Positions 2,788 to 42,812 of a stretch of DNA of 42,879 nucleotides are shown piece after piece. How positions within the stretch are numbered: position 1 is the first letter of the stretch; each line of letters begins with the position of its first letter. Position numbers and translations under genes: made by a program. The notes under the pieces were generated by a model. That model was not told the DNA's origin, made no database searches, and saw only the letters and a program-made list of their open reading frames with translations. Origin of the DNA: a virus; the UHGV virus genome UHGV-0301147. One strand, 5' to 3'.

Positions 2788-4424
2788 CCCGCCGCCGCTG
2801 GTTTATCAAACATCGCGCCACGATTGTACGAACTCGCAGCCTGTCTCAGTCCATCGAGCACCCCCGACGCTGCAGATTGTTGTATTGACTGCGGATCTGT
2901 CGCACCGACAATATTGATTTCGATTTTATTGTTTTGCTCCGGCGCAGGTGTCGAGACTGCCTGCTTCAACGTATCAATATTTAACGTCGACGAATCCAGT
3001 GCTGCAGGCGCGGTATTTTTATTTACCATCCCGGATAATGGATTAACAAACGCGAGCATTGATTCTGCCTGAGATTTTGCCTGTTCTTGCCGTTCTGGAT
3101 GCCGCATATTTTCGACAGCCTCTTCGGCTTTTGCCTTCGCAATATTATCAGCAGTCAATCCAGCGTTCGGTGAATATTTACCTCCCGAATCCATAAACTC
3201 TTGATATGCCCGATTATATTCGTCATTATAAGTTTTCTGTTCTTCATCTGATTTTTCATCCGGAATAAGCCACTCCAGTTTCTTTACGACAGCCCATATA
3301 ATCTTCCCGAATTTGACGCAACCTTCTCCAAAATTGACGATGCCATCCCACATTTTTTTCATATTTTCTGGTTTTACCCACTCAGTAATTGTGCTGACAA
3401 AACCACCCTGATTATCCTTAAACCAGGATGTAAATGTTTCACGTACTGAGTCAAACGTCGGCGCGAGTTCCCCCCCGATTTTACCGAGTGTATCTGCAAG
3501 TCCCGACGTAATAGAGCCCCACAGATTTGTCACTGATACATGCGCACGCGCCGCCCCTTCCGCACCCTCTTTTGTTAACAAATTCGACTTTTGCGCGTCA
3601 GACATTGTCTGTTCCCAGCTTTTACCCGTCGCCTTCATATACGTCATGATCTTATTAGCCTCGCCCCCCATGAGCTGGTCAGCGAGGCTCGCCGCTTGCT
3701 TCTCATCTTTCATTTCAGAGATGCGACGCATAACCTCATTAAACTGTTTTTCCCGATCCCAGCCAGCCATTCGTTTTTTCGTCAGGCCAATTTGAAATAA
3801 CATGGGATTCAGGCTTTTTTCGTTTCCGATTTCGCCGATTTTATTTGTAAGTTCTTCAGACAAATCCCCGATATTTTCGCCGTTCAGGCCCGCGGCTTTA
3901 CCAATATTTTCCCACGCAGCGTATTTTTCGACGCCAACGCCGTAGGACTTCGCCAGACCGAGTTTTTCTGACGTCTCTGCATTCATTGCCAGCGCACCAG
4001 CTGCAGCACCGCCAATGAGCCCTGCCGCGCCAAGTGTCCCCCATTTGATACCCCGCCCCGTAGCCCTCACCGCACCTGCGGCGGCTCGTCCGCCCCATTT
4101 TGCAGCTCCTTTTGCGCGACCCGTCCACTTCTCCAGCTGCTGTTTTTTAGCAAGTTGAGTATTCAGCGCCTCCTGGTCCTGCGTTGTCGCTTTTATCCGA
4201 CGGTCCAGCTTTTGATACTGAGCAGATAAATCAGAAACGTCTTTACCTGCCAGTTTCATTGCTGCGATTTTGTCTTTTAATTTATCCTGACTTTTCGTTA
4301 ATTTCCCGACAGTAGACGACGTCTGCCGAATCGCATCATTGAGTTCTGTTGTACCGCGACGAAACGACGGGTCTATTCGCCCACCGAATACAACCTGCGT
4401 TTTAAAGTTTTGAGAAATAGCCAT
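2784..4424 (-). CDS. Tail tape measure protein
   Basis: 546-aa Ala/Gly/Lys-rich coiled-coil-type protein between the assembly chaperone and gpU. Confidence 0.75.
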   Translation of the reverse strand: MAISQNFKTQVVFGGRIDPSFRRGTTELNDAIRQTSSTVGKLTKSQDKLKDKIAAMKLAGKDVSDLSAQYQKLDRRIKATTQDQEALNTQLAKKQQLEKWTGRAKGAAKWGGRAAAGAVRATGRGIKWGTLGAAGLIGGAAAGALAMNAETSEKLGLAKSYGVGVEKYAAWENIGKAAGLNGENIGDLSEELTNKIGEIGNEKSLNPMLFQIGLTKKRMAGWDREKQFNEVMRRISEMKDEKQAASLADQLMGGEANKIMTYMKATGKSWEQTMSDAQKSNLLTKEGAEGAARAHVSVTNLWGSITSGLADTLGKIGGELAPTFDSVRETFTSWFKDNQGGFVSTITEWVKPENMKKMWDGIVNFGEGCVKFGKIIWAVVKKLEWLIPDEKSDEEQKTYNDEYNRAYQEFMDSGGKYSPNAGLTADNIAKAKAEEAVENMRHPERQEQAKSQAESMLAFVNPLSGMVNKNTAPAALDSSTLNIDTLKQAVSTPAPEQNNKIEINIVGATDPQSIQQSAASGVLDGLRQAASSYNRGAMFDKPAAAG

Positions 4425-15829: not shown

Positions 15830-17403
15830 CAGTTACCTCCCCAGCCGTTATCGTTGGTATTTGAGGGGTGAGATACAGACCATGACGGTTCGCTCAGCCC
15901 CATTTCACGCCGGCGCTGAATTTCGTATTCCTGCTGCTCCATAACCTCCTCGTAATCCTGTCCCTGCAGCGCCAGTTCGTTCTGATACGTGCTGAGGCCA
16001 GTTGTGATGCGCATGGCGCTCTCCTGAACCTCTTTCAGCCCATCAATCGCCATGCGACCAGCGCCGATCCAGAGCGCGTTCGTCCAGGAGTTCCGCGCCT
16101 CATAAAACGACCGGACAGCTGAGCGTGGCAGGGTGATAATTCCGCGTGCCAGCGCCTCTTCAAACCAGCAGCAGAACATCAGCGACGCCTGTCGCGCGGC
16201 GATAAAACGTCGACGCCCCATGAAAAATCGCCAGCTGACGTTAGCACTGGCCCGGGCGCTGGAGTAACTGACCTGGCTGTAGTCCCGGCTAAGTTCTTCG
16301 TATGACGCGCCAACGCCAGCTGCAACGTAACGCAGGAGTGATTTTTCCAGTGAACTAAAACCAGCATCAGCATTCTGAGCGGTCTGTAAACTGAGTTTGT
16401 CGCCGGGATGCAGGTGGGGAACTTTCACACCACCGAGCTTGATATTTGCGCCGTTGTAGTACGTCACGTAACTCTGAATAAACGAATTCAGCGGGTTCGA
16501 GTCGATATCAGTACCCGCGCCGGCGATATATTCAAACGCCTGCTGGCTGTCGAGCTCTGATTCGATTGTCGCGGCATACATCGCCTTCACAATGGCGCTC
16601 TGCAGTTGTGTTTGCTGCAGTGTGTCGAGCATTTTCAGGCGCTCCATGACGCTGTAAAAAATATTGTCCCCGCGGGTCTGTCCGTCCTCGAGCGGCTCGA
16701 ATATGTGGATGAATGCGTGTCTGCCGCTGCTGAGCTGTGCTGGGATACGCCGGCATTTACCGACTCCGCCGAGAGGGTAAGTATCCTCGGCTATCCAGTA
16801 CCCGACCGCGGCCCCGTTTTTATCGATATCAACACCGGCGCGGCGAAATTGAGTGTCAGCTGCGTAACCCGGATTTCGAATCCGTTTCGGTGAGACCATT
16901 TTGAATCGCGTCCGAAAAACGCTGCCGGCACTACTCTCCCAGACTGGTTGTACGCAGGTTTCACCGTTGAAAGCGTGAGTAGCCACGCCCTCGCGGATCA
17001 TCATTGTGAACGTCCGTTTCCGCTCGATATCAATCGTGCAGTGAGGGTCCTCGGCGTATTCAGTCCACGCTACCTCGACGTCACGCGCCAGCGCCCTGGC
17101 GTCCTCGCGAGATATGCCGAGGTAACGCCAGTTAGGGCGATAACTCAACTTAAACAGATTGCCGACGATATGATCCTGGTGCAGCTGCACGGCGTTCGAC
17201 GCGACGCCGTTATTGCGAACGAGATCGTCTGCTCGCGCGTTACCGCGATAAAAATTCGGCAACAGTGCTGCGTCGGCGCTCTGCTGTGGTGCGTTCCAGT
17301 CAATCAGCTGGCCACCGAAACCGGGACCGCCGCCGTTATACCCCGCGTAACGGCGTAGTGGCGTTTTACCGTCAGGCCCGAGCAGCTGCTGCGGAGCAGT
17401 CAT
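15829..17403 (-). CDS. Portal protein, lambda gpB family
   Basis: 524-aa ORF between the gpW-like and protease genes. Confidence 0.85.
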   Translation of the reverse strand: MTAPQQLLGPDGKTPLRRYAGYNGGGPGFGGQLIDWNAPQQSADAALLPNFYRGNARADDLVRNNGVASNAVQLHQDHIVGNLFKLSYRPNWRYLGISREDARALARDVEVAWTEYAEDPHCTIDIERKRTFTMMIREGVATHAFNGETCVQPVWESSAGSVFRTRFKMVSPKRIRNPGYAADTQFRRAGVDIDKNGAAVGYWIAEDTYPLGGVGKCRRIPAQLSSGRHAFIHIFEPLEDGQTRGDNIFYSVMERLKMLDTLQQTQLQSAIVKAMYAATIESELDSQQAFEYIAGAGTDIDSNPLNSFIQSYVTYYNGANIKLGGVKVPHLHPGDKLSLQTAQNADAGFSSLEKSLLRYVAAGVGASYEELSRDYSQVSYSSARASANVSWRFFMGRRRFIAARQASLMFCCWFEEALARGIITLPRSAVRSFYEARNSWTNALWIGAGRMAIDGLKEVQESAMRITTGLSTYQNELALQGQDYEEVMEQQEYEIQRRREMGLSEPSWSVSHPSNTNDNGWGGN

Positions 17404-30472: not shown

Positions 30473-31309
30473 TCAAAATGCTGAATCAGCAACAGATACA
30501 GCCGACTTTTTCCCCATTACCATCAATTTATCCAGTGTCATACTTCGCAGATTGTCGCTGTGGATCACCAGATACCCTGCCCGCTCAGCGATCTCTTTGA
30601 AAGCGTCAAAGGTCATCAGATGTTCGCCTTTGGCAACATGGCGCATCCTTGTCACTTTTCCATTTTTGATAGTGGTGATAAAAGAAAAATCCGGAATGGT
30701 TGGCTGATTTTCATCGAGTAGCAGGCAGTGGATGTATTCAATCGCCTCTAACATTTGCGTCTGTGACAGTTGTTCTATGTGAGAGACGGCGAAGCGTTGA
30801 TGAATCATGGTGTAGGCATCGGGATACATCATGCCTTTCTTACCGACCAGCATATTAACGGCATCACGTAAGGGAGTACGGTCATCGGTAGTTGTACTCC
30901 GCCTCTCTGGGCGCTGGCTAAAATAACAATCTTCAAGCTTTTCGAAAACTTCCCAAGCCTGTTCTGTTTCCAGCATTTTGGCATGGCGAGCTGCGCCGCG
31001 TTCTGTCCAGAGAATGAGGGATCGGGTATGTTTAGCAACTGACTGACTATCTGTCAGTCTGTTTTTGAAGTCGCGTAATTCATTACCTTCCAGCTTAAAA
31101 AAATGCTTTCCTACGACAAATCTGGCGATGTTGCGCTTGAAGTTTTGCTGGATACCATTTACTTCCGTGCCATACAAACTGGCAAGCAATTCAGTAGTGA
31201 TGACGGGAAGTTGGTTATGATGTAGCGGAGAAAGGGATTCCGCAGATATTTGGATTGTCATCGCAGTGGCCTCACTTAGTGTTTTTTTCATCACCACCAG
31301 CGACGCCAA
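30473..31309 (-). CDS. Phage antirepressor-like regulatory protein (Ant/Rha-type N-terminal domain)
   Basis: 278-aa ORF with antirepressor-like N-terminal region; true start probably an internal Met. Confidence 0.55.
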   Translation of the reverse strand: MASLVVMKKTLSEATAMTIQISAESLSPLHHNQLPVITTELLASLYGTEVNGIQQNFKRNIARFVVGKHFFKLEGNELRDFKNRLTDSQSVAKHTRSLILWTERGAARHAKMLETEQAWEVFEKLEDCYFSQRPERRSTTTDDRTPLRDAVNMLVGKKGMMYPDAYTMIHQRFAVSHIEQLSQTQMLEAIEYIHCLLLDENQPTIPDFSFITTIKNGKVTRMRHVAKGEHLMTFDAFKEIAERAGYLVIHSDNLRSMTLDKLMVMGKKSAVSVADSAF

Positions 31310-31533
31310 TCATCTGGTGGTGAACTGTGCAGGGTTGGCGTAACCGGCTAAGTGAACCCGGCGCTTCCGCAGAAGCCCCCACACAGCCCACCATAATGCG
31401 AATGTGGCCGTGCCTAACACATAAAAAAACCGCTAACGCGGCTATGCGTCACTTAGATATCCGGGACGCCAATCCCGGCAACCGATTTTGCGGCTGCGCG
31501 GAAACTATAGCCCCGGGCTTTTTCTAAGTCAAT

Positions 31534-32708: not shown

Positions 32709-33119
32709 TCACGTCCCTTTCTTTGCTATCGGAGTGATGGAACTCAGCAGCAGGCGACAGCGACCGGGCGCGCCAATGCGCTGTCCGGTTATCTTGTCGT
32801 AAGTTTCATGCGGTGAGGCACACCAGGTTGTCGCTGTTTCGTGGAGTTTCACTTGCCGCTCACCATTTCTGCGAATCGCGATCCCGATGTGCGTTTTACC
32901 CTTACATTTCACTGCTGGCGCTGCGGCTACGGATGCCTGACGGGCAGGCTGAGCTGGTGTTGAAAAATTGCCTGCTTTGGGTCTTGGTACAAAAACCGCA
33001 CGAGTGCGCGCACGTGGCCCGGCGTTCATATTCCACAAAATGACGTCGAGATAGTTTTTACCGTCGTCTATGTGTCCTTTGTCCGACGGGTACTCTAATT
33101 TGCCTGAAATGGTGGTCAT
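32709..33119 (-). CDS. Hypothetical protein
   Basis: 136-aa ORF directly downstream of the helicase gene. Confidence 0.45.
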   Translation of the reverse strand: MTTISGKLEYPSDKGHIDDGKNYLDVILWNMNAGPRARTRAVFVPRPKAGNFSTPAQPARQASVAAAPAVKCKGKTHIGIAIRRNGERQVKLHETATTWCASPHETYDKITGQRIGAPGRCRLLLSSITPIAKKGT

Positions 33120-33157
33120 TGGTCTTTCCTCGGTTATTTCACGCTGGTCATGCGTGG

Positions 33158-34549
33158 TTAAAATGGGTCCGTATTAAAGTTTTTGTTTGAATACCGTTTT
33201 TCACGTTTTCTCGGTTGCTCTGCCTCCTTCTGGATGCGTAATTTTTCGCGTGCTACGTGTTGATCAACTGGCAGGAAATGCCCATTCCGGAATTCCTGAT
33301 AAATAATTTCACCTGCCCCGCCAGAACGGTTTTTACCGATAATCACCTCGGCGATACCCTTTGCAGGTGAATCAGGTGTGTAAACTTCATCGCGGTACAA
33401 AAACAAAATGCTGTCAGCGTCCTGCTCAACACTGCCGGAATCGCGCAGGTCCGACATCACCGGGCGACGCTGGCCAGCAGGTCGAGAATCCACCTGGCGG
33501 GAAAGCTGGCTAAGAGCAAAAACAGGGGTATGCAGACGCATGGCCATAGTCTTCATGTTGCGGGAGATATGCCCGACAGCGAGATCGTGGCGCTCGGCCT
33601 TCGGTTTTTTGATCAGGCCCATGTAATCAACACCAATCAACTTCAGGTGCGGATAACGGCGTTTATGAGTCTCTGCAATGGCGCGGATCTGCTCAATCGT
33701 CAAATCAGTGGCATCAACAATCCAGATATCGCGATCCTGCATGATTGCAAGCGCGGCGGTTAATCTGGTCAAATCCTCATCGTCCATTTCTTTTGGATTA
33801 CGCAGACGCGACGTGGACATATTCCCAGCCCCGGCAACGGTACGTTCAACAATCTGCTGAGCGCCCATTTCCATGCTGAAAAACAGTGCGCCGCCGCCAT
33901 CTGCGGTAACGCCATCGATAATCTTCAGGGTAAATTCCGTTTTCCCCATGCCTGGACGACCGGCAACCACAACAAGGTCGGTCATGTTGATACCGCCCAG
34001 GGCGACATCCAGATCCTCGACTCCGGTTTTCAGCATCATTTCCTGCGCGTCGCCAGACATCCGTTTATCAACGGTGTCAATGTAGAGCGGTAACAGCTCT
34101 TTGATGTGTACCGGCTGGACTGTGCCGGTAGCGGCGCTCATATCCAGCACCTGAGCAACATGAGATTCAATAACCTCATCACGCTGACTCTGGTTTACAG
34201 CGTTACGGATACCATCCGCGCCAGATTGCAACAATGCCGCCATTTTGCGGCTCCGCCATGCCCGCACCATTTTCCCGGCATAGCCTTTCAGATTCGGTAC
34301 CGTTGCCGGGATCCGGGATATTTGAGACAGATCCGCAAGGCTGGAACCGCCCAGCGCTTCGCTGATAAACAACATGTCGATCATGCCGTTCGCCAGTGCC
34401 TGCTTTTTGATTTCGCTGAAAGCGCGACGGTGAAACACGATGCTGAAGGCTTCCTCCGGAGTAGTGGCAATCACATCAAACGCGTCAGGCGTCGCGCCAC
34501 CGTTAATCAGACCAGCGAGAACGATCGCTTCCAGTTCTTCTGGATTCAT
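33158..34549 (-). CDS. Replicative DNA helicase (DnaB family)
   Basis: 463-aa ORF with Walker A (GRPGMGKT) and DnaB-like C-terminal motifs. Confidence 0.9.
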   Translation of the reverse strand: MNPEELEAIVLAGLINGGATPDAFDVIATTPEEAFSIVFHRRAFSEIKKQALANGMIDMLFISEALGGSSLADLSQISRIPATVPNLKGYAGKMVRAWRSRKMAALLQSGADGIRNAVNQSQRDEVIESHVAQVLDMSAATGTVQPVHIKELLPLYIDTVDKRMSGDAQEMMLKTGVEDLDVALGGINMTDLVVVAGRPGMGKTEFTLKIIDGVTADGGGALFFSMEMGAQQIVERTVAGAGNMSTSRLRNPKEMDDEDLTRLTAALAIMQDRDIWIVDATDLTIEQIRAIAETHKRRYPHLKLIGVDYMGLIKKPKAERHDLAVGHISRNMKTMAMRLHTPVFALSQLSRQVDSRPAGQRRPVMSDLRDSGSVEQDADSILFLYRDEVYTPDSPAKGIAEVIIGKNRSGGAGEIIYQEFRNGHFLPVDQHVAREKLRIQKEAEQPRKREKRYSNKNFNTDPF

Positions 34550-35646: not shown

Positions 35647-35837
35647 CCGGCTTCATAGTCCGCATTGCTCAGCCCTTTGTCGCGCAACTCGACCTTCCTG
35701 GATTCATACTGCTCCCACACCGAAAGCGCGGCAGCCATACGCCCATCAAAAATAGGTTGGATCTCTGCAACATGTGCCGGGCGCCCATTCAGGTGCCAGC
35801 CGTTACGCCAGGTAATGCGGTCAATATGTCTTAACAT
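35613..35837 (-). CDS. Hypothetical protein
   Basis: 74-aa ORF between the CII-like and initiator genes. Confidence 0.4.
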   Translation of the reverse strand: MLRHIDRITWRNGWHLNGRPAHVAEIQPIFDGRMAAALSVWEQYESRKVELRDKGLSNADYEAGCRQIAEALEI

Positions 35838-35876
35838 CGGTCTTTCCTCGGTATAAGTTAAACGCTGGTCAGGCGC

Positions 35877-36353
35877 TCATGCATGGTGGCCTTGCGCAGT
35901 GCTTATCACTGCTCCTCGCGTCGCTACCAGCGCCGCTATTGCTTCGTCAATTTCCTGAATAGTTAACTCTGGCGCGAAGTGGAGATGTACAGCGTTAATC
36001 GCTTCCACCCCTTCTTTTGCCGCCAGCGTTGCCAGCAAAACGGGATCGCCCGGCGACTCCAGACGCGCCCGCCGTTCTGCGGGTAGCACTGCTTTCATCA
36101 CACTGGCCAGCACCTGAGTTTTTCGGCGCGCCGCCGTTGTCTCGCCACGTAACCAGCGAAAGATTTTCTGCCGGTTGTTGTTGATGGCTCTCCAGTCCAC
36201 GTTGCCGTCCGTGTCCTCAAATTCATGTAGTCTCAACTCATCATTGCGTCCCTGACTGAACCAGGCCCGGCAGATTTCAATCGTGACGAGTTCCTGCCCT
36301 GCCCTTGCCGCCCAGGTCAAAATCTCTTTTTGTAATTCCTCTTGGTTTTCCAT
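35877..36353 (-). CDS. YdaT-like / CII-analogue regulatory protein (tentative)
   Basis: 158-aa ORF immediately downstream of the Cro-like gene, as in YdaS-YdaT arrangements. Confidence 0.45.
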   Translation of the reverse strand: MENQEELQKEILTWAARAGQELVTIEICRAWFSQGRNDELRLHEFEDTDGNVDWRAINNNRQKIFRWLRGETTAARRKTQVLASVMKAVLPAERRARLESPGDPVLLATLAAKEGVEAINAVHLHFAPELTIQEIDEAIAALVATRGAVISTAQGHHA

Positions 36354-36610: not shown

Positions 36611-36678
36611 AATTCCTCCGCGTAACTTTTGTTAGCAACACAAATACTAACGAAAGTTATGTCAAGTTAACTTATATT
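36611..36678. promoter_or_regulatory. Divergent promoter/operator region of the immunity switch
   Basis: 68-bp AT-rich intergenic region between the Cro-like and repressor genes, containing AAGTTA-N8-TAACTT and a TTAG...CTAA dyad. Confidence 0.5.
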
Positions 36679-37092
36679 ATGAGGATGAAAAATTTGATGC
36701 TTAGCGACCGTTTATCTCAAAGACGCAAACAGCTTGGTCTAACCCAACAACAGCTTGCTGATATGGTTGGAAGATCGAGTGTGAGCGTTTTTAAATGGGA
36801 AAGCGGACAAAATGAACCAAAGGGCCAGAACTTGTTGGCTTTGGCCAATGCACTCAAGTGTTCTGCCACATGGCTGCTTTTTGGTGACGAAGACCAGGCG
36901 CCAACTCCGGTAGACGAATTACCAACAGAGCTGGATTCACGTCAAAAAAGATTGTTAGAGTTATTTGATTCATTACCCGAGTCAGAAAAAGAAAAGCAAC
37001 TAATTGAATTAGAAGATAAAGTTGAAAACTTTAATCGTTTATTTGAAGAGTTACTGGTTACCAGAAAGAAACTAACCCCCACCAAAAAATAA
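36679..37092 (+). CDS. CI-like prophage repressor, XRE-family HTH only (no S24 autopeptidase domain)
   Basis: 137-aa ORF with HTH LTQQQLADMVGRSSVSVFKWESG; too short for a LexA-like cleavage domain; start may be the Met at 36697. Confidence 0.8.
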   Translation: MRMKNLMLSDRLSQRRKQLGLTQQQLADMVGRSSVSVFKWESGQNEPKGQNLLALANALKCSATWLLFGDEDQAPTPVDELPTELDSRQKRLLELFDSLPESEKEKQLIELEDKVENFNRLFEELLVTRKKLTPTKK

Positions 37093-37095
37093 AAT

Positions 37096-37130
37096 AAAGG
37101 CAATGTTTTCAATGCATTGCCTTTATTTTT
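37096..37130 (+). terminator. Rho-independent terminator after the repressor gene
   Basis: Perfect 10-bp stem aaaggcaatg / cattgccttt followed by ATTTTT, starting 4 bp after the stop. Confidence 0.7.
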
Positions 37131-37930
37131 ACCCCAAATACTAACTTTTGTTATAAAACATCTTGCACATAAAATTACCTTTAGTTATATTCATTCCATC
37201 AACAACGCTTACCCAGCGGCAGTTGTTCAGAAACACGTTCTGACAGCCGGAAAGACGGCACCAAATTTTGCGCGTCGGCGCCAACACGGTGACAGAGGGA
37301 AAGACTTCACCGGCATATGGCACATGTGTCGAAGCGGTCTGGATGGAAGCGGAGCCTTAACGCGTTGTCTCCATAGCAGGTAGCCGGAATGTGCAAGCCA
37401 CAGCCAGGTATGAGCGATTGATTCACCATCAAGGCGATACGGTGTGACCACCAGGGAAGAGTCCTGGCTACAACACGAGAGCGCACTTCATCGACTCAAC
37501 TTTGAGCTTTGTCGTTAAATTTTGAAATGGCGGAGTGCGCTCCCGGTTGTGGTGAACAGGTGTTTAACGGGAACTCCCTGCCCGTTACCCGGTTCGATTC
37601 CGGGCGCCCATCATCAATTTGCTGTGTTTAGTCTTTGCCCAGTCCGCACGATGGGCCATTTTTTCACACAGCCAGGTTTTATCGCTGTGCCTGAGTCCCC
37701 AACAGGAGAGGCCAAACCCGCAGCGTGACACCAGGGAAAGACCGGAGGAAGTACCACGCCTGACCAGCGTTGACCATGAGCCTGACCAGCTCAAAACAGG
37801 AAAGACCAGCCCTGTACGGTCGTAATGGAAACATAACGACGCCGGAAACGTAACCGGCACCCTTTAGATAGCAAAAGACCCGCACAAGGCGGGCCAGTTA
37901 CCCCGAACGGCGACCAAACCATTCGGATTT

Positions 37931-37954
37931 ATCACAAGTGACCAAACTTGTGAT
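37931..37954. promoter_or_regulatory. Inverted repeat (operator- or hairpin-like) upstream of the early-left operon
   Basis: ATCACAAG-tgaccaaa-CTTGTGAT, 8-bp arms with 8-bp spacer. Confidence 0.35.
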
Positions 37955-38038
37955 GAGGAAAGACCAACGACACTGACGCTATGGAAGCTGATCAATATTC
38001 GCTGATCGGCTCTGAGTATACATTACCAAGGAGTCGCT

Positions 38039-38359
38039 ATGGAAGCGCGCACCATCCCAGTAACACTCTTTATTCATTATGCAACTTCAACTTTCAGCCA
38101 CGAAAAGCTGCTTGTTGCGACGGTTGATATGTCAAAAAATTTTCCAGACAGGTACATCCTTCTGGAAAGCCGCGAAATTGAAATTACCGTCAACCAGCCC
38201 CAGCCAATCGACATCATCGGTTTACAGGTCGAGCAGCTGCATGAGCAAAAACAGAAAACAGCCGCCGACGCCCAACAGCGTATTGCTGCTATCGATGACG
38301 AAATCCAGCAGTTACTTTGCATCGAATACACGCCAGATACCGATGAAATCCCCTACTAA
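38039..38359 (+). CDS. Hypothetical protein (first gene of the plus-strand early-left operon)
   Basis: 106-aa ORF with SD AAGGAG; no family recognised. Confidence 0.5.
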   Translation: MEARTIPVTLFIHYATSTFSHEKLLVATVDMSKNFPDRYILLESREIEITVNQPQPIDIIGLQVEQLHEQKQKTAADAQQRIAAIDDEIQQLLCIEYTPDTDEIPY

Positions 38360-38389
38360 AGACCACTGACCTGTAATGAGGAAAGACCA

Positions 38390-40606
38390 ATGACCATTTT
38401 TAACGGCTTGTTAGAAGCGAAAAAAGGCGCGCTCAAAAACGGTGCGATCCCGGCGCTGGCCATCGCCATCGACGCCCCTAACAAAAAAGTTGCCGAGAAC
38501 ATCATCATCGGCAAATTGTGGGAAGCCTACCCTGACCACGGCGACAACTATTTCAAACCTAAAATCTGGGAGGATGCCCCAGGCCAACCGCGCCCAGGCG
38601 TCGGTGAGTTTGATGAGACGTTTGCCACAGAACACAGTTTTGATGGCGAAAAATGGGTAGTTAACCCCCCCGCTGATTCAGATAGCGGTTCAGCAGATAT
38701 CGCACAGGTTAACGACCTGATGAAACTGCCTGCTCGTGAACGCTTCGCCGCCGTCCTGCTGTTCAGCCACGACGCCAACGAAGTCGACAGTGAATTGCTT
38801 GCGCAGACGCGTGAATACCTGGAGATGCTCGACAACAGTGATACTAACAGTGAGGATGAGGTTGACGCGTTTAACCGCATCGTCCTCGATGCCATGGTAG
38901 CGTGTAAGCCCATTGAGTACATGCATATTGCTGGATTGAATAATCTGGTACATGCAATTTTGGCAAGTTGCGATACCCAGGAACAAAACCCGACCAGTTG
39001 GACTATCTCCAAATTTATAAAAAAATGGGTAGAGAATCCCGGTAAACGCGATGAAATGCTGCCGGAGGTAAAACCACAAACAGCATCCGCACGTCCTTAC
39101 CAACAGACTCACGCCACACTGGATCGTGAAATTGCCTGCGCCCTGTTACCTGTTGCCCCGGAAAAAATCACCCCCAGCATCCTGAAAGCGGCAGACGAAA
39201 TAATCAGTCAGGACAGGGAAGATTTTAAACGCTGGTCAATGGCCTTGCGCACAACGGATCAGATCCTTGCCTATGACCGCGCATCAGTATTCGGTGTTAT
39301 TCAGAGCGCCCCCGCAAAAGACACGTACCACTTCCCACAATCCCTGCGCAGTCACATCGACAACTGGCTGCAAGCTAACGGGCAGCGTGATGCAAATGCT
39401 GTTGAAGAGAAGCCAAAGGAAGCAGCACCAAAGGATGATGTAAAAGTCACCAACCACGGCGGCGGACGATTCTCAATTGATGGGATGATGTCAGAAACAC
39501 CCTCAAATCAGGGCGAAAAAAGCGAAGCAGCAAATGCTGGAGAACGTAGTTTGCAGCAGTTGCGTGAGCAGTTTGTCACGCCTCGCCATGTGTATGACGT
39601 ACCTGAAAATAACGCCGTATCACAGAGGGAACCTGCAGCTATTACCCCGGCAGAAGAGACTCCTCCACAAGAACAACTTAGCGAGCAGGTAAAGGATCTG
39701 GTGCAGAACGTTGACGCGCTGGTTGAGCGGATCCATACCGAAGAGTACAAGCGGCAGAATGCAATCTCAGCTATCGAAACGGAGTTAAAGGACTCCGACG
39801 ACACGGATAATCTGGCATTGTGGAAGAACGTATTCAAAACCGATGAGCGCTTCACCAGTGCTTTCTCTCAGAATGGCGGCGGCACATCCATCAACGGCAC
39901 TTATATAGCGATGAAAGCGACTCGCGAATTTGGGCCGTTTGGTATTGGCTGGGGTGTAGAGGTGCTGGAGGAGCGCTTTGATAAAGGCGCACCGATAGTT
40001 CGCAAAAAACAGGTTGGTGAAAAAATAGAATGGGATCTGATTCACGACGGTGTTGGCGGGTACCTATGTGAAATGCACCACACCATGAAAGTGAGAGTCT
40101 GGTACATATTGAATGGGGTGCGCGGCGAGTCTGCGGCTTACGGTTGCACTCCGTACATCTACGATACTAGACATGGACCAACAAGCGACGGCGAAGCGCC
40201 GAAGAAATCCTGGACGGATGCTGTTAAGAAAGCGCTATCCCCTCTCGGATTCAGCGCCGATATTTTCATGGGCCTGTACGACAATCCGGAATACCGCCAG
40301 AGGAATAAAGCTGAGTTTGATATCAAGAATGCCAGCGAGAATGCGGAAGATGCTACCCGTCTTCGTAAGGAACTGGATGAGAAGCTGATCAACGTTGCCA
40401 ATACGCTGGCCGCCGCGGTAACCACCAACGAAGTAAACAAGGTATTTGGCCTCATCGCCCGCGAAGTGGATGTACACCGAAAAGCAGCAGAAGCCAAAGG
40501 CGATAAAGAATATTCATCGTATCTGGGATCGCGCCTGCGCCGTATCACCGACATCAAAACTGAACGCCTCGCCACCCTCACCGCTGCACAGGAGCAAACC
40601 GCATGA
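38390..40606 (+). CDS. Rad52-like single-strand annealing protein with a ~450-aa N-terminal extension of unknown function
   Basis: 738-aa ORF; C-terminal third carries Rad52/Sak-type motifs (GPFGIGWG ... KKSWTDAVKKALSPLGFSADIFMGLYD). Confidence 0.65.
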   Translation: MTIFNGLLEAKKGALKNGAIPALAIAIDAPNKKVAENIIIGKLWEAYPDHGDNYFKPKIWEDAPGQPRPGVGEFDETFATEHSFDGEKWVVNPPADSDSGSADIAQVNDLMKLPARERFAAVLLFSHDANEVDSELLAQTREYLEMLDNSDTNSEDEVDAFNRIVLDAMVACKPIEYMHIAGLNNLVHAILASCDTQEQNPTSWTISKFIKKWVENPGKRDEMLPEVKPQTASARPYQQTHATLDREIACALLPVAPEKITPSILKAADEIISQDREDFKRWSMALRTTDQILAYDRASVFGVIQSAPAKDTYHFPQSLRSHIDNWLQANGQRDANAVEEKPKEAAPKDDVKVTNHGGGRFSIDGMMSETPSNQGEKSEAANAGERSLQQLREQFVTPRHVYDVPENNAVSQREPAAITPAEETPPQEQLSEQVKDLVQNVDALVERIHTEEYKRQNAISAIETELKDSDDTDNLALWKNVFKTDERFTSAFSQNGGGTSINGTYIAMKATREFGPFGIGWGVEVLEERFDKGAPIVRKKQVGEKIEWDLIHDGVGGYLCEMHHTMKVRVWYILNGVRGESAAYGCTPYIYDTRHGPTSDGEAPKKSWTDAVKKALSPLGFSADIFMGLYDNPEYRQRNKAEFDIKNASENAEDATRLRKELDEKLINVANTLAAAVTTNEVNKVFGLIAREVDVHRKAAEAKGDKEYSSYLGSRLRRITDIKTERLATLTAAQEQTA

Positions 40607-41172
40607 GCACCGCTATCGCTATTGCAAAAGAATATGCCAGCCTGATTGACCTGCTGGAAACCTCCGACGAACTGACGCCAGAGATGATCGCCGACACGCT
40701 TGAAGGTATGGAAGGAGAACTGGGAGACAAACTGGACGCCATGATGGTCATCTGCCGCAATTTACAGGGCAATGCCAGTACCTGCGCTGAAGAAATGTCT
40801 CGCCTGGCTACCCGTAAGACGTCCTTTGAAGGCAAGGAAAAAGCAATTCGGAAGCATATGCTCGCCTGCCTGCAAGCTGCTGGCCTGGATAAATTGAAAA
40901 CTGCTAAAAACACATTTACTGATGCACAGGGGGCTATCCGGGTAATTATCGATAGCAAAGATAAGATCCCGGACGAGTATGAAGGCGTGTCACTTGTTGA
41001 AGTAGAAACGGTTATTACACCAAACAAGCGAGCCATTAAAGAAGTGATTGAATCTGCGGAGGCGGTTGCCGCAGAAATAATGGCGCGTGGAGAAACACCA
41101 CCTGCCGAATTACTTAACCCGGTACCAGGCGCACATCTGGAACGCGGCGAACGTTCGCTGAGGGTACGCTAA
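40603..41172 (+). CDS. Gp157-family protein (recombination-associated)
   Basis: 189-aa ORF overlapping the upstream stop; N-terminus EYASLIDLLETSDELTPEMIADTLEGMEGE and IPDEYEG match recalled Sipho_Gp157 features. Confidence 0.65.
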   Translation: MSTAIAIAKEYASLIDLLETSDELTPEMIADTLEGMEGELGDKLDAMMVICRNLQGNASTCAEEMSRLATRKTSFEGKEKAIRKHMLACLQAAGLDKLKTAKNTFTDAQGAIRVIIDSKDKIPDEYEGVSLVEVETVITPNKRAIKEVIESAEAVAAEIMARGETPPAELLNPVPGAHLERGERSLRVR

Positions 41173-41354
41173 TGCTTAAACTCACATTAAAGCGTGGTGA
41201 CGCGGTTCACCTGGTACTTGCCGATGGTACCAATGGCATTATTGAAGCACGGAGCCGCTGCGAACTTGGGCTACACCTGCCAGAAAACATTAAGGTCACG
41301 CGGGAGAAATCGGCATTCCCCCCACCAGAACTGATTACGCCTAATCAGAAATAA
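41172..41354 (+). CDS. Hypothetical protein
   Basis: 60-aa ORF whose ATG overlaps the upstream stop (TAATG). Confidence 0.4.
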   Translation: MLKLTLKRGDAVHLVLADGTNGIIEARSRCELGLHLPENIKVTREKSAFPPPELITPNQK

Positions 41355-41403: not shown

Positions 41404-41628
41404 ATGCTGCGATGGCAACCGGGAGCAACTCTGCTCTCCGCATTTGATATCAAAATTGGCCGACTCTCGGCCAGCGTCAGGAAACAGACTTTGACCGAGT
41501 CTGATATTGCCCGTGCCTGCAAGGCGGCAGATGACGCAATAAGCTACATAATGAGGAAAGACCATGAGAAGCGATCACGACATAATCACCAGAGAAGAAA
41601 TGGTCGAGCTGACGGGAAGCCCACTTAA
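41404..41628 (+). CDS. Hypothetical protein
   Basis: 74-aa ORF with SD GGAGGA; overlaps the next gene out of frame. Confidence 0.35.
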   Translation: MLRWQPGATLLSAFDIKIGRLSASVRKQTLTESDIARACKAADDAISYIMRKDHEKRSRHNHQRRNGRADGKPT

Positions 41629-41827: not shown

Positions 41828-42812
41828 CTGGATGCCGCCTCGTGTTTACCAGGGCAAAGCGGCCTACGAATTCAGGAATAAAGATAACAAAGCGATACGC
41901 CTGTGCGCATTGGATGCGCCACGATCAGCCGTATGGCTGGCATATGAAAAAGCGGTCGGTGACGAAAAAGAAAGAAATACTTTTCAGGCGCTCGCGGAAC
42001 AATTCATGACCTCCCCTGATTTTATGGATTTGGCAGTCGAAACCAGGAAAGACTACACAAAATATTCCGGAAAAGTTCTGCCTGTCTTCGGGAAGATCGA
42101 CCCGGATAAAATCAAACCTGAACATATTCGGCGCTATATGGATCAACGCGGTTTATCAAGCCGAACTCAGGCAAACAGGGAAAAAAGCTTTATGTCCAGG
42201 GTATTCCGTTGGGGTTATGAACGAGGTTATGTCCAGAGGAATCCTTGTCAGGGAGTTAAGCAGTTTAAAGAGACAGCACGCGAACGTTATATTACGGATG
42301 AAGAATATCAGGCCGTTTATGAAGTATCTCCTGATGTTGTTCGCGTGGCAATGGAGATTGCCTACTTATGCGTGGCCAGACAGAGTGATGTACTTTCATT
42401 GCAGAAAGACCAGCTGTTCGATTCCGGGATCTACATTCGTCAGGGAAAAACCGGCGTTAAGCAAATCAAAGCCTGGTCGCCTCGTCTGCAGAAAGCGATA
42501 GCTCTGGCTCGTTCTCTACCATTAAAACCGGGAATCAGTAGCCTGTTTGTGATTCATCAAACTACCGGAGGCAAGTACACCCGTGATGGTTTTAACTCTC
42601 GTTGGCGTGATGTCAAAGCGGCAGCACAGGAAAAATATCCTCATCTGCAAATAGACTTCACATTTCATGATCTGAAAGCAAAAGGTATCTCTGATCTGGA
42701 AGGCAGCCTGGAAGAGAAGCAAGCAATTTCCGGGCATAAGAACCCACGACAGACAGCAGCATATGACCGAAAAGTTAAAGTAGTGCCCGTAGTTGGTGGC
42801 CAGAGAAAATGA
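41766..42812 (+). CDS. int: Tyrosine integrase (lambda Int family)
   Basis: 348-aa ORF at the prophage end; QGKTGVKQIKAWSP and C-terminal HDLKA ... Y resemble lambda Int; true start probably an internal Met. Confidence 0.9.
   Translation: MMNLILEQYLMAGKRKNPADNWMPPRVYQGKAAYEFRNKDNKAIRLCALDAPRSAVWLAYEKAVGDEKERNTFQALAEQFMTSPDFMDLAVETRKDYTKYSGKVLPVFGKIDPDKIKPEHIRRYMDQRGLSSRTQANREKSFMSRVFRWGYERGYVQRNPCQGVKQFKETARERYITDEEYQAVYEVSPDVVRVAMEIAYLCVARQSDVLSLQKDQLFDSGIYIRQGKTGVKQIKAWSPRLQKAIALARSLPLKPGISSLFVIHQTTGGKYTRDGFNSRWRDVKAAAQEKYPHLQIDFTFHDLKAKGISDLEGSLEEKQAISGHKNPRQTAAYDRKVKVVPVVGGQRK

Follow-up and report, generated by a model that had tools for sequence, protein, structure and literature searches.

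What occupies the roughly 0.9 kb that follow the repressor gene of the virus genome UHGV-0301147, at a place where lambdoid phages normally carry exclusion genes and pL/N? In the 42,879-nt stretch of DNA analyzed here (the window), a first-pass annotation had drawn attention to this region (37131-38395), which held no convincing open reading frame (ORF) and carried repeated copies, all in one orientation, of an 8-nt motif, GGAAAGAC. Judged from its sequence, the region is the leader RNA, ~840 nt long, untranslated and heavily structured, of an early-left operon under repressor control, and leader and motif together point to an RNA-level control circuit, previously undescribed, of a large family of enterobacterial temperate phages. 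The region was found in 476 of 5426 complete Escherichia coli genomes, always in the chromosome and annotated without genes, and a syntenic region about 72% identical is carried by phage vB_SmeS_BUCT708 and by many IMG/VR contigs. BUCT708 (L187, OM816834.1) was deposited as a Stenotrophomonas phage, and its whole early regulatory region, initiation cassette and leader are common to it and E. coli prophages.

The region was assigned to the early-left operon as its leader because it is preceded by the terminator of the repressor gene, then by an operator resembling OR, and then by a promoter (Table 1). The repressor gene (36679-37092) ends in this strong terminator. The operator core is identical to that of OR, and the palindrome TAAC-N4-GTTA occurs at 36623 and 36648, in the intergenic region between the cro-like and repressor genes, at 37142, upstream of the leader promoter, and also at 17123. 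The predicted promoter has a -35 box TTGCAC (37163-37168) and a -10 box TATATT (37186-37191), which align with TTGACG..TAAATT in relatives. Downstream, the operon encodes in this order a 106-aa protein, an exonuclease-family protein, Gp157, a 60-aa protein (p60), a DUF4224 (Xis-like) protein and the integrase. The 106-aa gene has a canonical AAGGAG site and an acidic product (phrog_2479). Scans of the early genes with Pfam and PHROGs recognized an anti-repressor, a CII-like/YdaT protein, the exonuclease, Gp157 and DUF4224, and returned nothing N- or Q-like, in agreement with the earlier remark that no N-like protein is evident.

The first-pass annotation had also recognized that its reading would fail if the region encoded a protein once sequencing errors or frameshifts were corrected. 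Although ORFs of up to 88-91 aa can be drawn, such a hidden gene is scarcely credible: the sequence of the region is identical across several independent complete genomes, the ORFs in 37131-38038 are all short and unconserved, with the longest differing between lineages, and only 4 of the 21 insertions or deletions relative to the 72%-identical BUCT708 are multiples of three. Conservation of the leader among its relatives, including BUCT708 and the IMG/VR contigs, is instead block-wise, and the conserved blocks coincide with hairpins. At the downstream edge, a 48-aa upstream ORF (37981-38127, + strand) overlaps the start of the 106-aa gene; its frame is common to BUCT708 and lost in lineage L167.

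The motif itself is far in excess of chance, as had been claimed, with 10 exact matches in the window compared to 1.21 ± 1.06 (maximum 4) in 100 dinucleotide-preserving shuffles. Six exact copies lie on the + strand between 37249 and 38387 (at 37249, 37298, 37735, 37799, 37957 and 38380), separated irregularly by 49, 437, 64, 158 and 423 nt; a further copy at 41555 stands ahead of the Xis-like gene, these seven being at the positions first noticed, and the variant is GGAAGAG at 37455. The three copies described earlier as sharing one context were recovered as well, within ATGAGGAAAGACCA at 37953-37966, 38376-38389 and 41551-41564, the second ending 1 nt before the ATG of the 738-aa exonuclease-family ORF and the third 0 nt before that of the 87-aa DUF4224 ORF. 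What the first-pass annotation had overlooked is that the motif comes in two forms, a hairpin loop and a ribosome-binding site, that it also marks gene starts on the opposite arm, and that a second conserved hairpin accompanies it there. Two exact copies on the - strand (35847 and 33129) each lie immediately 5' of the ATG of an early-right gene. The remaining copy, at 42046, is within the integrase ORF and looks incidental. We take GGAAAGAC to be identical to positions 2056-2063 of 23S rRNA, the match not extending past the 8-mer.

As an RNA element, GGAAAGAC is the core of a recognition motif, G-GAAAGA-C, which in its hairpin form (A-type), G[GAAAGA]C, makes a hexaloop with its closing pair. 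Across the relatives 17 distinct versions of this hairpin were collected, with the same loop on stems of 3-6 bp that differ in sequence (GCCCG/CGGGC, UGCGG/CUGCA, GUCUG/CAGAC, GCUCG/CGAGC and UGCCGG/CCGGCA, for example). In 15 of these versions 89% of the alignment cells were paired, with 15 compensatory cells, compared to 19-40% when the partners were slid; selection of the units for at least 3 pairs inflates the paired percentage and leaves the diversity of the stems unaffected. Four versions use G·U pairs, which would be C·A on the opposite strand, and therefore the + strand RNA is the functional molecule. The covarying stems and the strand on which the G·U pairs exist bear out the earlier suggestion of an RNA-based mechanism. 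Conservation of the motif in related phages, on which the first-pass annotation had made its reading depend, was confirmed: it is invariant in the 72%-identical relatives, and the GAAAGA cluster of the leader is kept in about 60 lineages (whose 60-aa proteins are 40-100% identical), whether or not the core RNA described below is present. Three strong and two weaker hairpins of the leader carry G[GAAAGA]C or G[GAAGAGU]C, and the first two (HP1 and HP2) are at the same positions in nearly all lineages. In prophages of the E. coli SE11 type (L002, 1641-2145), an insertion of ~490 bp with a 74-aa ORF, located between positions equivalent to 37240 and 37256 of the window, replaces HP1. Other hairpins have a CUGACCA loop (B-type); two of these precede the unpaired A-type site of the leader (B-type hairpins, 37756-37793), and the stems of three more conserved hairpins (37879-37952), two of them with GACCAA in the loop, covary in L003, L093 and L178.

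In its start-site form the motif is an unpaired GAGGAAAGACC that stands between the Shine-Dalgarno bases and an AUG 0-4 nt further on, an arrangement present at four gene starts on both early arms (38390 and 41564 on the + strand, 35837 and 33119 on the - strand). A second conserved hairpin, GCGC[CUGACCA]GCGY, lies 10-13 nt upstream of both - strand copies, and its outer pairs covary. This cassette is kept at the orthologous starts of BUCT708, in DNA that is otherwise about 72% identical. By pattern search, the order hairpin GCGC[CUGACCA]GCGY, 10-21 nt, GAGGAAAGACC and then AUG was recovered in more than 120 viral contigs, as at least 136 distinct instances before several gene families.

The first-pass annotation had treated the region as a single motif-bearing stretch. 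The motif was real, and the stretch turned out to be a mosaic of distinct RNA modules, with no uniform repeat region; about half of it is taken up by other modules: a structured RNA of wide occurrence, an element resembling a tRNA, and a terminator like that of RprA. The first of these, a ~165-nt core RNA, scored 141.6 bits (E 7e-40) in the window with a covariance model (R1). Its last helix, P6, is CCAGG[GAAGAGU]CCUGG (37451-37467), the core's own version of the A-type hairpin. Among 27 non-redundant sequences, five helices including a pseudoknot were 97.5% paired, compared to 30-53% with partners slid, and 10 pairs had changed on both sides; GGUAGCCGGAAUGUGCAAG and long single-stranded segments were invariant. 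As these sequences were collected by an exact 19-mer, nothing can be deduced about pairing of that segment, and RNAalifold also proposed for the core an alternative long-range helix, GGCACAU/AUGUGC. Neither the core nor the hairpins matched a family of Rfam 15, either at gathering scores or, with 36900-38500 scanned, at E <= 10, and in searches of the literature by sequence string and topic the hairpin family, the cassette and the core RNA were likewise not found described.

Covariance-model searches found exactly one core per genome, with none on the early-right arm. It occurs in more than 120 IMG/VR contigs and also in P1, P7, D6, SJ46, mEp460, Stx2a and Stx2c phages and in phages of the phiV10, SPN1S and Tyrion (epsilon15-like) types. 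In mEp460 and the Stx2 phages it has the same place after cI; in P1 it lies between trnI and ban, inside the C1-controlled ban operon. Elsewhere it stands at the head of gene-free arrays made up of stem, tRNA-like and terminator modules together with tRNA-Arg(UCU) genes. The core is optional, being absent from L167 and L178 and from 40 of the 63 loci with the 60-aa gene; L178 also lacks the stem and tRNA-like modules and keeps the terminator. A scan of species genomes with GGGAAAGACCGGAGGAAG gave 35 matches in unrelated phyla, close to the ~17 expected by chance and none of them enterobacterial. Mimicry of host rRNA was discarded, as comparison with an rrn operon yielded only chance-level 12-14-mers apart from one 16S-like piece in two phages: about 440-560 nt past the core, the gene-free arrays of L096 and L100 contain a 29-nt stretch with 86-90% identity to 16S rRNA 254-282 (E 3e-4 against one rrn operon). 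Mimicry of RNase P RNA was discarded too, as the nine-mers shared with it (31 for the + strand and 18 for the - strand, compared to 22 after shuffling) gave no signal, and the small RNAs named Pas, located in late regions, are unrelated.

Three modules follow the core. The architecture of the long stem module S1 recurs in other phages, with its arms changing in step. In the tRNA-like module, an arm AACGGG/CCCGUU is replaced by AGCUGG/CCAGCU in L167; a true tRNA is not indicated, as neither ARAGORN nor Rfam called one in the window (the best candidate being a weak tRNA-Sec of 19 bits). Related phages have a real tRNA-Arg(UCU) or a different tRNA-like module at the equivalent place. Over 50 nt, the third module (37619-37668) matches the 3' end of chromosomal rprA, comprising its seed and terminator, with 84% identity, and 4977 genomes have their best match to the module in the 80-90% band. 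Its score of 37.4 bits is below the RprA gathering score of 70 (RF00034), with good alignment in the 3' half only; it lacks the 5' half of RprA, which includes the rpoS-pairing part. The targets of RprA might also be acted on by the phage copy, whose seed module is found again in the gene-free RNA arrays of unrelated phages. The 3' half of the leader is A-rich and U-poor, a composition that rules out a C-rich, rut-like character. Elsewhere in the window, Rfam models above their gathering scores identified a C4 antisense RNA with a1/b1 targets and isrK (31313-31510, - strand) upstream of the anti-repressor gene (30473-31309), a module of the RNA-controlled antirepressor type of P1/P7 in a lambdoid prophage.

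Table 1. Coordinates of the leader, its modules and the motif-bearing sites in the window (loops in square brackets).
Feature	Position	Strand	Evidence or remark
Intrinsic terminator of the repressor gene, 12-bp stem and U run	37095..37131	+	fold energy -15.6 kcal/mol
OL operator, AAATACTAAC-N4-GTTAT (37137-37154), and pL-type promoter	37137..37191	+	palindrome search, promoter scan
Whole untranslated leader RNA of the early-left operon	37198..38038	+	start inferred from promoter; no conserved ORF; covarying stems
A-type hairpin HP1, GCCG[GAAAGA]CGGC	37246..37259	+	orthologs GCCCG..CGGGC or GUCUG..CAGAC
A-type hairpin HP2, GAGG[GAAAGA]CUUC, one G·U pair	37295..37308	+	ortholog UGCGG..CUGCA
Core structured RNA, ~165 nt: P1, P2, variable P3, P5 with loop-to-downstream pseudoknot, P6	37308..37474	+	
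Core RNA in other phages	L128 (P1) 2520-2703; L127 (mEp460) 3012-3188; L129 (Stx2a_1447) 3012-3188		
Long stem module S1, ACAACACGAGAGCGCACUUC ... GGAGUGCGCUCCCGGUUGU around a variable insert	37468..37553	+	fold energy -36.7 kcal/mol
tRNA-like module, canonical T arm (CCCGGUUCGAUUCCGGG) and anticodon-like arm	37549..37614	+	fold
RprA-like seed (UUGCUGUGUUUAGUCUUUGCC) and intrinsic terminator T1	37618..37668	+	Rfam RprA 37.4 bits
A-type site HP4, CC(A)GG[GAAAGA]CCGG, then GGAGGAAG	37731..37745	+	CCAGGGAAAGACCGGAGGAAGUAC invariant in relatives
Two B-type hairpins, ACGC[CUGACCA]GCGU (37756-37770) and UGAGC[CUGACCA]GCUCA (37777-37793)	37756..37793	+	
Unpaired A-type site AACAGGAAAGACC	37799..37806	+	motif count, fold
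Decayed A-type hairpin, GCCGG[AAACGUAA]CCGGC	37841..37858	+	relatives GCCGG[GAAAGA]CCGGC
Three further conserved hairpins, CCCGC[ACAAG]GCGGG and two with GACCAA-containing loops (37903-37927, 37933-37952)	37879..37952	+	
Pseudo-start site AUGAGGAAAGACCA, then ACG	37953..37966	+	AUG in relatives
A-type initiation region of the 738-aa exonuclease-family gene (AUGAGGAAAGACCAAUG)	38376..38392	+	
Gene of 60-aa protein p60 (phrog_2482), candidate motif reader, weakly CsrA-like	41172..41354	+	
A-type initiation region of the DUF4224 (Xis-like) gene, 87-aa ORF	41551..41566	+	
Early-right cassette before 136-aa gene: CACGC[AUGACCA]GCGUG, 10 nt, GAGGAAAGACC-A-AUG	33117..33160	-	
Early-right cassette before 74-aa gene: GCGC[CUGACCA]GCGU, 13 nt, GAGGAAAGACC-G-AUG	35835..35880	-	orthologous cassette in BUCT708

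What might read a motif placed both in leader hairpins and on ribosome-binding sites? The reading that we favor, tentatively and prepared to see it fail, is that the sites are CsrA-type GGA sites and that the leader is a CsrB-like multi-site RNA for host CsrA, for p60, or for both. Like CsrB/CsrC and RsmX/Y/Z, the RNAs that act on CsrA/RsmA, the leader is an untranslated RNA with many GGA sites, several of them at hairpin loops where the first G is paired; GGA occurs in it 20 times on the + strand vs 7 on the - strand, and GGAA 13 times vs once. Its first ~470 nt end, as those sponges do, in an intrinsic terminator, and the same GGA motif overlaps the Shine-Dalgarno region of the candidate regulated genes. 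The individual sites CCAGGGAAAGA, AACAGGAAAGA, AUGAGGAAAGA and CCAGGGAAGAG lie within the spread shown by the 21 GGA sites of E. coli CsrB (among them UCAGGGAAAGG, CAGAGGAAAAG and GUCAGGAAGGC). A CsrA-type protein in a phage has precedent, csrA alleles having been reported in 30 of 2517 phage genomes (PMC7366521). For p60, the Pfam CsrA family was the sole recurrent match, obtained by 14 of 20 members of the p60 family over profile positions 1-45, with E values of 0.1 for the window protein, 0.0065 for the BUCT708 ortholog and 9e-4 for the best member; at 13-17 bits these matches do not reach the PF02599 gathering cut-off (27 bits), and NCBIfam gave no match to p60. Conversely, the p60 family profile scored 3.6-5.6 bits on real CsrA proteins, in register (28-47 on 28-47) and above all 106 shuffled controls. 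An ungapped manual alignment of p60 and CsrA keeps M1, L2, L4, T5, G9, G33, P37, V42, R44 and E45, which include residues reported, from CsrA mutagenesis, to matter for RNA binding. The four strands predicted in a monomer model of p60 (2-6, 11-15, 21-25 and 30-34; predicted local distance difference test score 77) match what we take to be the positions of CsrA strands 1-4. A search with this model returned no structural matches, a comparison to which a monomer is ill suited, as the CsrA fold is a five-stranded domain-swapped dimer.

Several observations weigh against this CsrA-type reading. When a first-order Markov model of this A/G-rich segment is taken as reference, the excess of GGA is not significant (321 of 2000), and the first G of the hairpin GGA forms the closing pair, whereas canonical CsrA sites hold GGA inside the loop. 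No match to CsrB, CsrC, RsmX/Y/Z or PrrB was found with Rfam at E <= 10 in 36900-38500. The CUGACCA loop has no GGA, and neither it nor the GACCAA loop fits any of the models considered here. The p60 gene is present at all 59 loci that cover its position, a co-occurrence that does not single out p60, as the whole operon is syntenic. Unlike the Csr/Rsm RNAs, moreover, the leader matches no Csr/Rsm sequence or model, is driven by a phage repressor-controlled promoter and runs on into protein-coding genes; its sites are sparser (about 1 per 42 nt vs 1 per 17 in CsrB), and its motif, GGAAAGAC(C), is much more specific than the A(N)GGA of CsrA.

Some of these data could be accommodated by a cis-acting antitermination or anti-Rho leader, in which the structured leader, and its core in particular, would modify the RNA polymerase or bring in host Nus factors, in the manner of HK022 put or the rrn leader, and the GAAAGA hairpins would be boxB-like modules, letting pL transcription pass T1 and 840 nt of untranslated RNA without N. 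We consider this unlikely, though worth taking seriously. The leader occupies the position of nutL/N or putL, after an operator-controlled promoter and upstream of an intrinsic terminator and xis/int, and there is a terminator to be passed without translation; the early genes offer no N- or Q-like protein; the core of mEp460 and Stx2 phages keeps this place after cI; most of 95 core contexts have one or two predicted intrinsic terminators before the first ORF; and the 3' arms of the stem modules are boxA-like (UGCUCUUU). The purine-rich, GNRA-like loops on stems of 4-6 bp recall boxB of lambda, whose loops are GAAAA and GAAGA. Yet L167 and L178 keep T1 and the downstream genes without a core, 40 of 63 loci with the 60-aa gene have no core, no terminator follows the core in P1, and the array of epsilon15-like phages looks like an independent unit served by a downstream promoter of its own. 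The boxA-like arm is itself base-paired in its stem, and no pair of a boxA (CGCUCUUA) and a single boxB was found, the only boxA-like string being the paired 3' arm of S1. Nor was a lambda-type N with an arginine-rich motif found, the first genes encoding the 106-aa acidic protein and the exonuclease-family protein. In comparison with the N-nut systems of lambda and P22, whose position between pL and the early-left genes it shares, the leader has five to ten hairpins vs one, and the presence of the motif on ribosome-binding sites is left unexplained. The put RNA of HK022 is about 70 nt long, with two stem-loops, and is found on both early arms (PMC9378689). The core, with ~165 nt, five helices, a pseudoknot and a single copy per genome that is missing from the early-right arm, is thus not a put RNA, although the HK022 stretch compared (L130) may exclude put. 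A purely translational explanation is that there is no dedicated trans factor and that GAGGAAAGACC-AUG with its upstream hairpin is a conserved intercistronic translation-initiation cassette; the leader would then be largely a graveyard, or else a landing strip, for cassettes that stayed behind as small genes came and went, with some copies locked in hairpins that hide Shine-Dalgarno-like bases, in parallel to the start-associated sequences of Cluster K mycobacteriophages and the mobile promoter/stem-loop cassettes of T4-type phages. Modules are indeed exchanged among the relatives: in place of the window's core, L167 carries a ~50-aa ORF whose start site is A-type (GGAAAGACC), BUCT708 has a 37-aa ORF after one motif copy, and the SE11 insertion has its 74-aa ORF; at one pseudo-start the window reads ACG for AUG; and the order of B hairpin and A site in the leader is that of the cassette. 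Nevertheless, this explanation is quite unlikely, as the hairpin copies keep the loop and closing pair with stems that change in step, a pattern that speaks for selection acting on the hairpin rather than for decay; the positions of HP1 and HP2 are kept in nearly all lineages, and an identity of 8-11 nt is too short for homologous recombination.

Pairing between RNAs was weighed as well. The GUCUUU of the RprA-like RNA, complementary to AAAGAC, lies in a single-stranded seed just 5' of the terminator and could pair with GAGGAAAGACC-AUG to block ribosomes, the leader hairpins being internal decoys; the terminator tail is of the Hfq type, the homology is to a known base-pairing small RNA, and in the IMG/VR leaders L205 and L237 GAAAGAC is 13 nt upstream of its exact complement GUCUUUC. 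Pairing of the two would give, in both of these leaders, a 7-bp hairpin with the RprA-like seed in its loop. Such pairing is nonetheless improbable, since it would involve only 6 contiguous pairs in the window and 5 in phages of the BUCT708 type (seed GUCUUGG, motif unchanged), variants of the seed (UUUG, UUGG, UUUC, UUCG) are not accompanied by corresponding changes in the motif, and the same seed module is found in phages without the motif. Finally, the same-orientation repeats adjoin the immunity region and might be DNA-level sites, bound as iterons by the repressor, by the Cro-like protein or by a protein of replication or recombination. To this we attach very little probability: the flanking arms differ and stay complementary, with G·U (G·T in DNA) pairs valid on one strand only, the spacing is irregular, the true operators are a different palindrome (TAAC-N4-GTTA), and on the opposite arm the copies change strand together with the genes, whose sense strand they always occupy.

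By the tests run, the arrangement is not a member of any of the families compared (Csr/Rsm, RegA, nut/put and start-associated sequences). As with RegA of T4, a phage early protein would bind a shared sequence at several early mRNA initiation regions and so turn these messages off. RegA sites are AU-rich and poorly defined; there is no RegA homolog here, and we know of no decoy leader for RegA. The start-associated sequences of Cluster K resemble the motif in being conserved shortly upstream of the start codons of some genes and repeated several times in each genome; those that Pope et al. are said to have described in 2011 are reportedly about 11-13 nt long, some with an upstream inverted repeat at variable distance (extended start-associated sequence). 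They differ in sequence, host and phage family, and the leader motif also forms clustered hairpin loops in a gene-free leader. A regulatory RNA embedded in and released from the untranslated 5' part of an early operon that a repressor controls recalls DicF, from the dicB operon of prophage Qin and a dicF-like region of the P1 ban operon, which carries that region together with the core RNA; there is no sequence relation to DicF, and the small-RNA-like module embedded in the leader is related to RprA.

If the sites are indeed read by a CsrA-family protein, loss of the repressor would cause the leader to be transcribed first, and the leader would bind that protein (host CsrA, p60 or both), either titrating or loading it. 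Once placed over GAGGAAAGACC-AUG, the CsrA-type protein would repress the exonuclease, the Xis-like protein and the two early-right genes at the level of translation, or set the time at which they are translated. Which protein binds, in which direction it regulates and that the leader serves as a decoy are inferred here. A more ambitious proposal is that two novelties coincide here: a self-contained phage Csr-like circuit, made up of a divergent CsrA-fold protein, a multi-site leader in the same operon and GAGGAAAGACC operators on both arms, and a new, widespread class of ~165-nt pseudoknotted RNA, which may have some conserved machinery of the host as its target and could be, say, a processive antiterminator of a new kind or a ribozyme for processing. 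That combination seems to us doubtful.

Lambdoid phages without N can thus spend nearly 1 kb, at the head of the early-left operon, on structured RNA. The motif is common to this leader RNA and to ribosome-binding sites in both early arms and thereby links the two, so that a timing switch at the RNA level is directly testable; the core exposes an unannotated family of structured RNA in model phages (P1, Stx2 and epsilon15-like), and the seed copied from RprA could reach targets of the host. Should CsrA, or a phage protein resembling it, prove to be the binder, the system would be the first in a phage to unite the protein, its decoy RNA and its operators in one operon.

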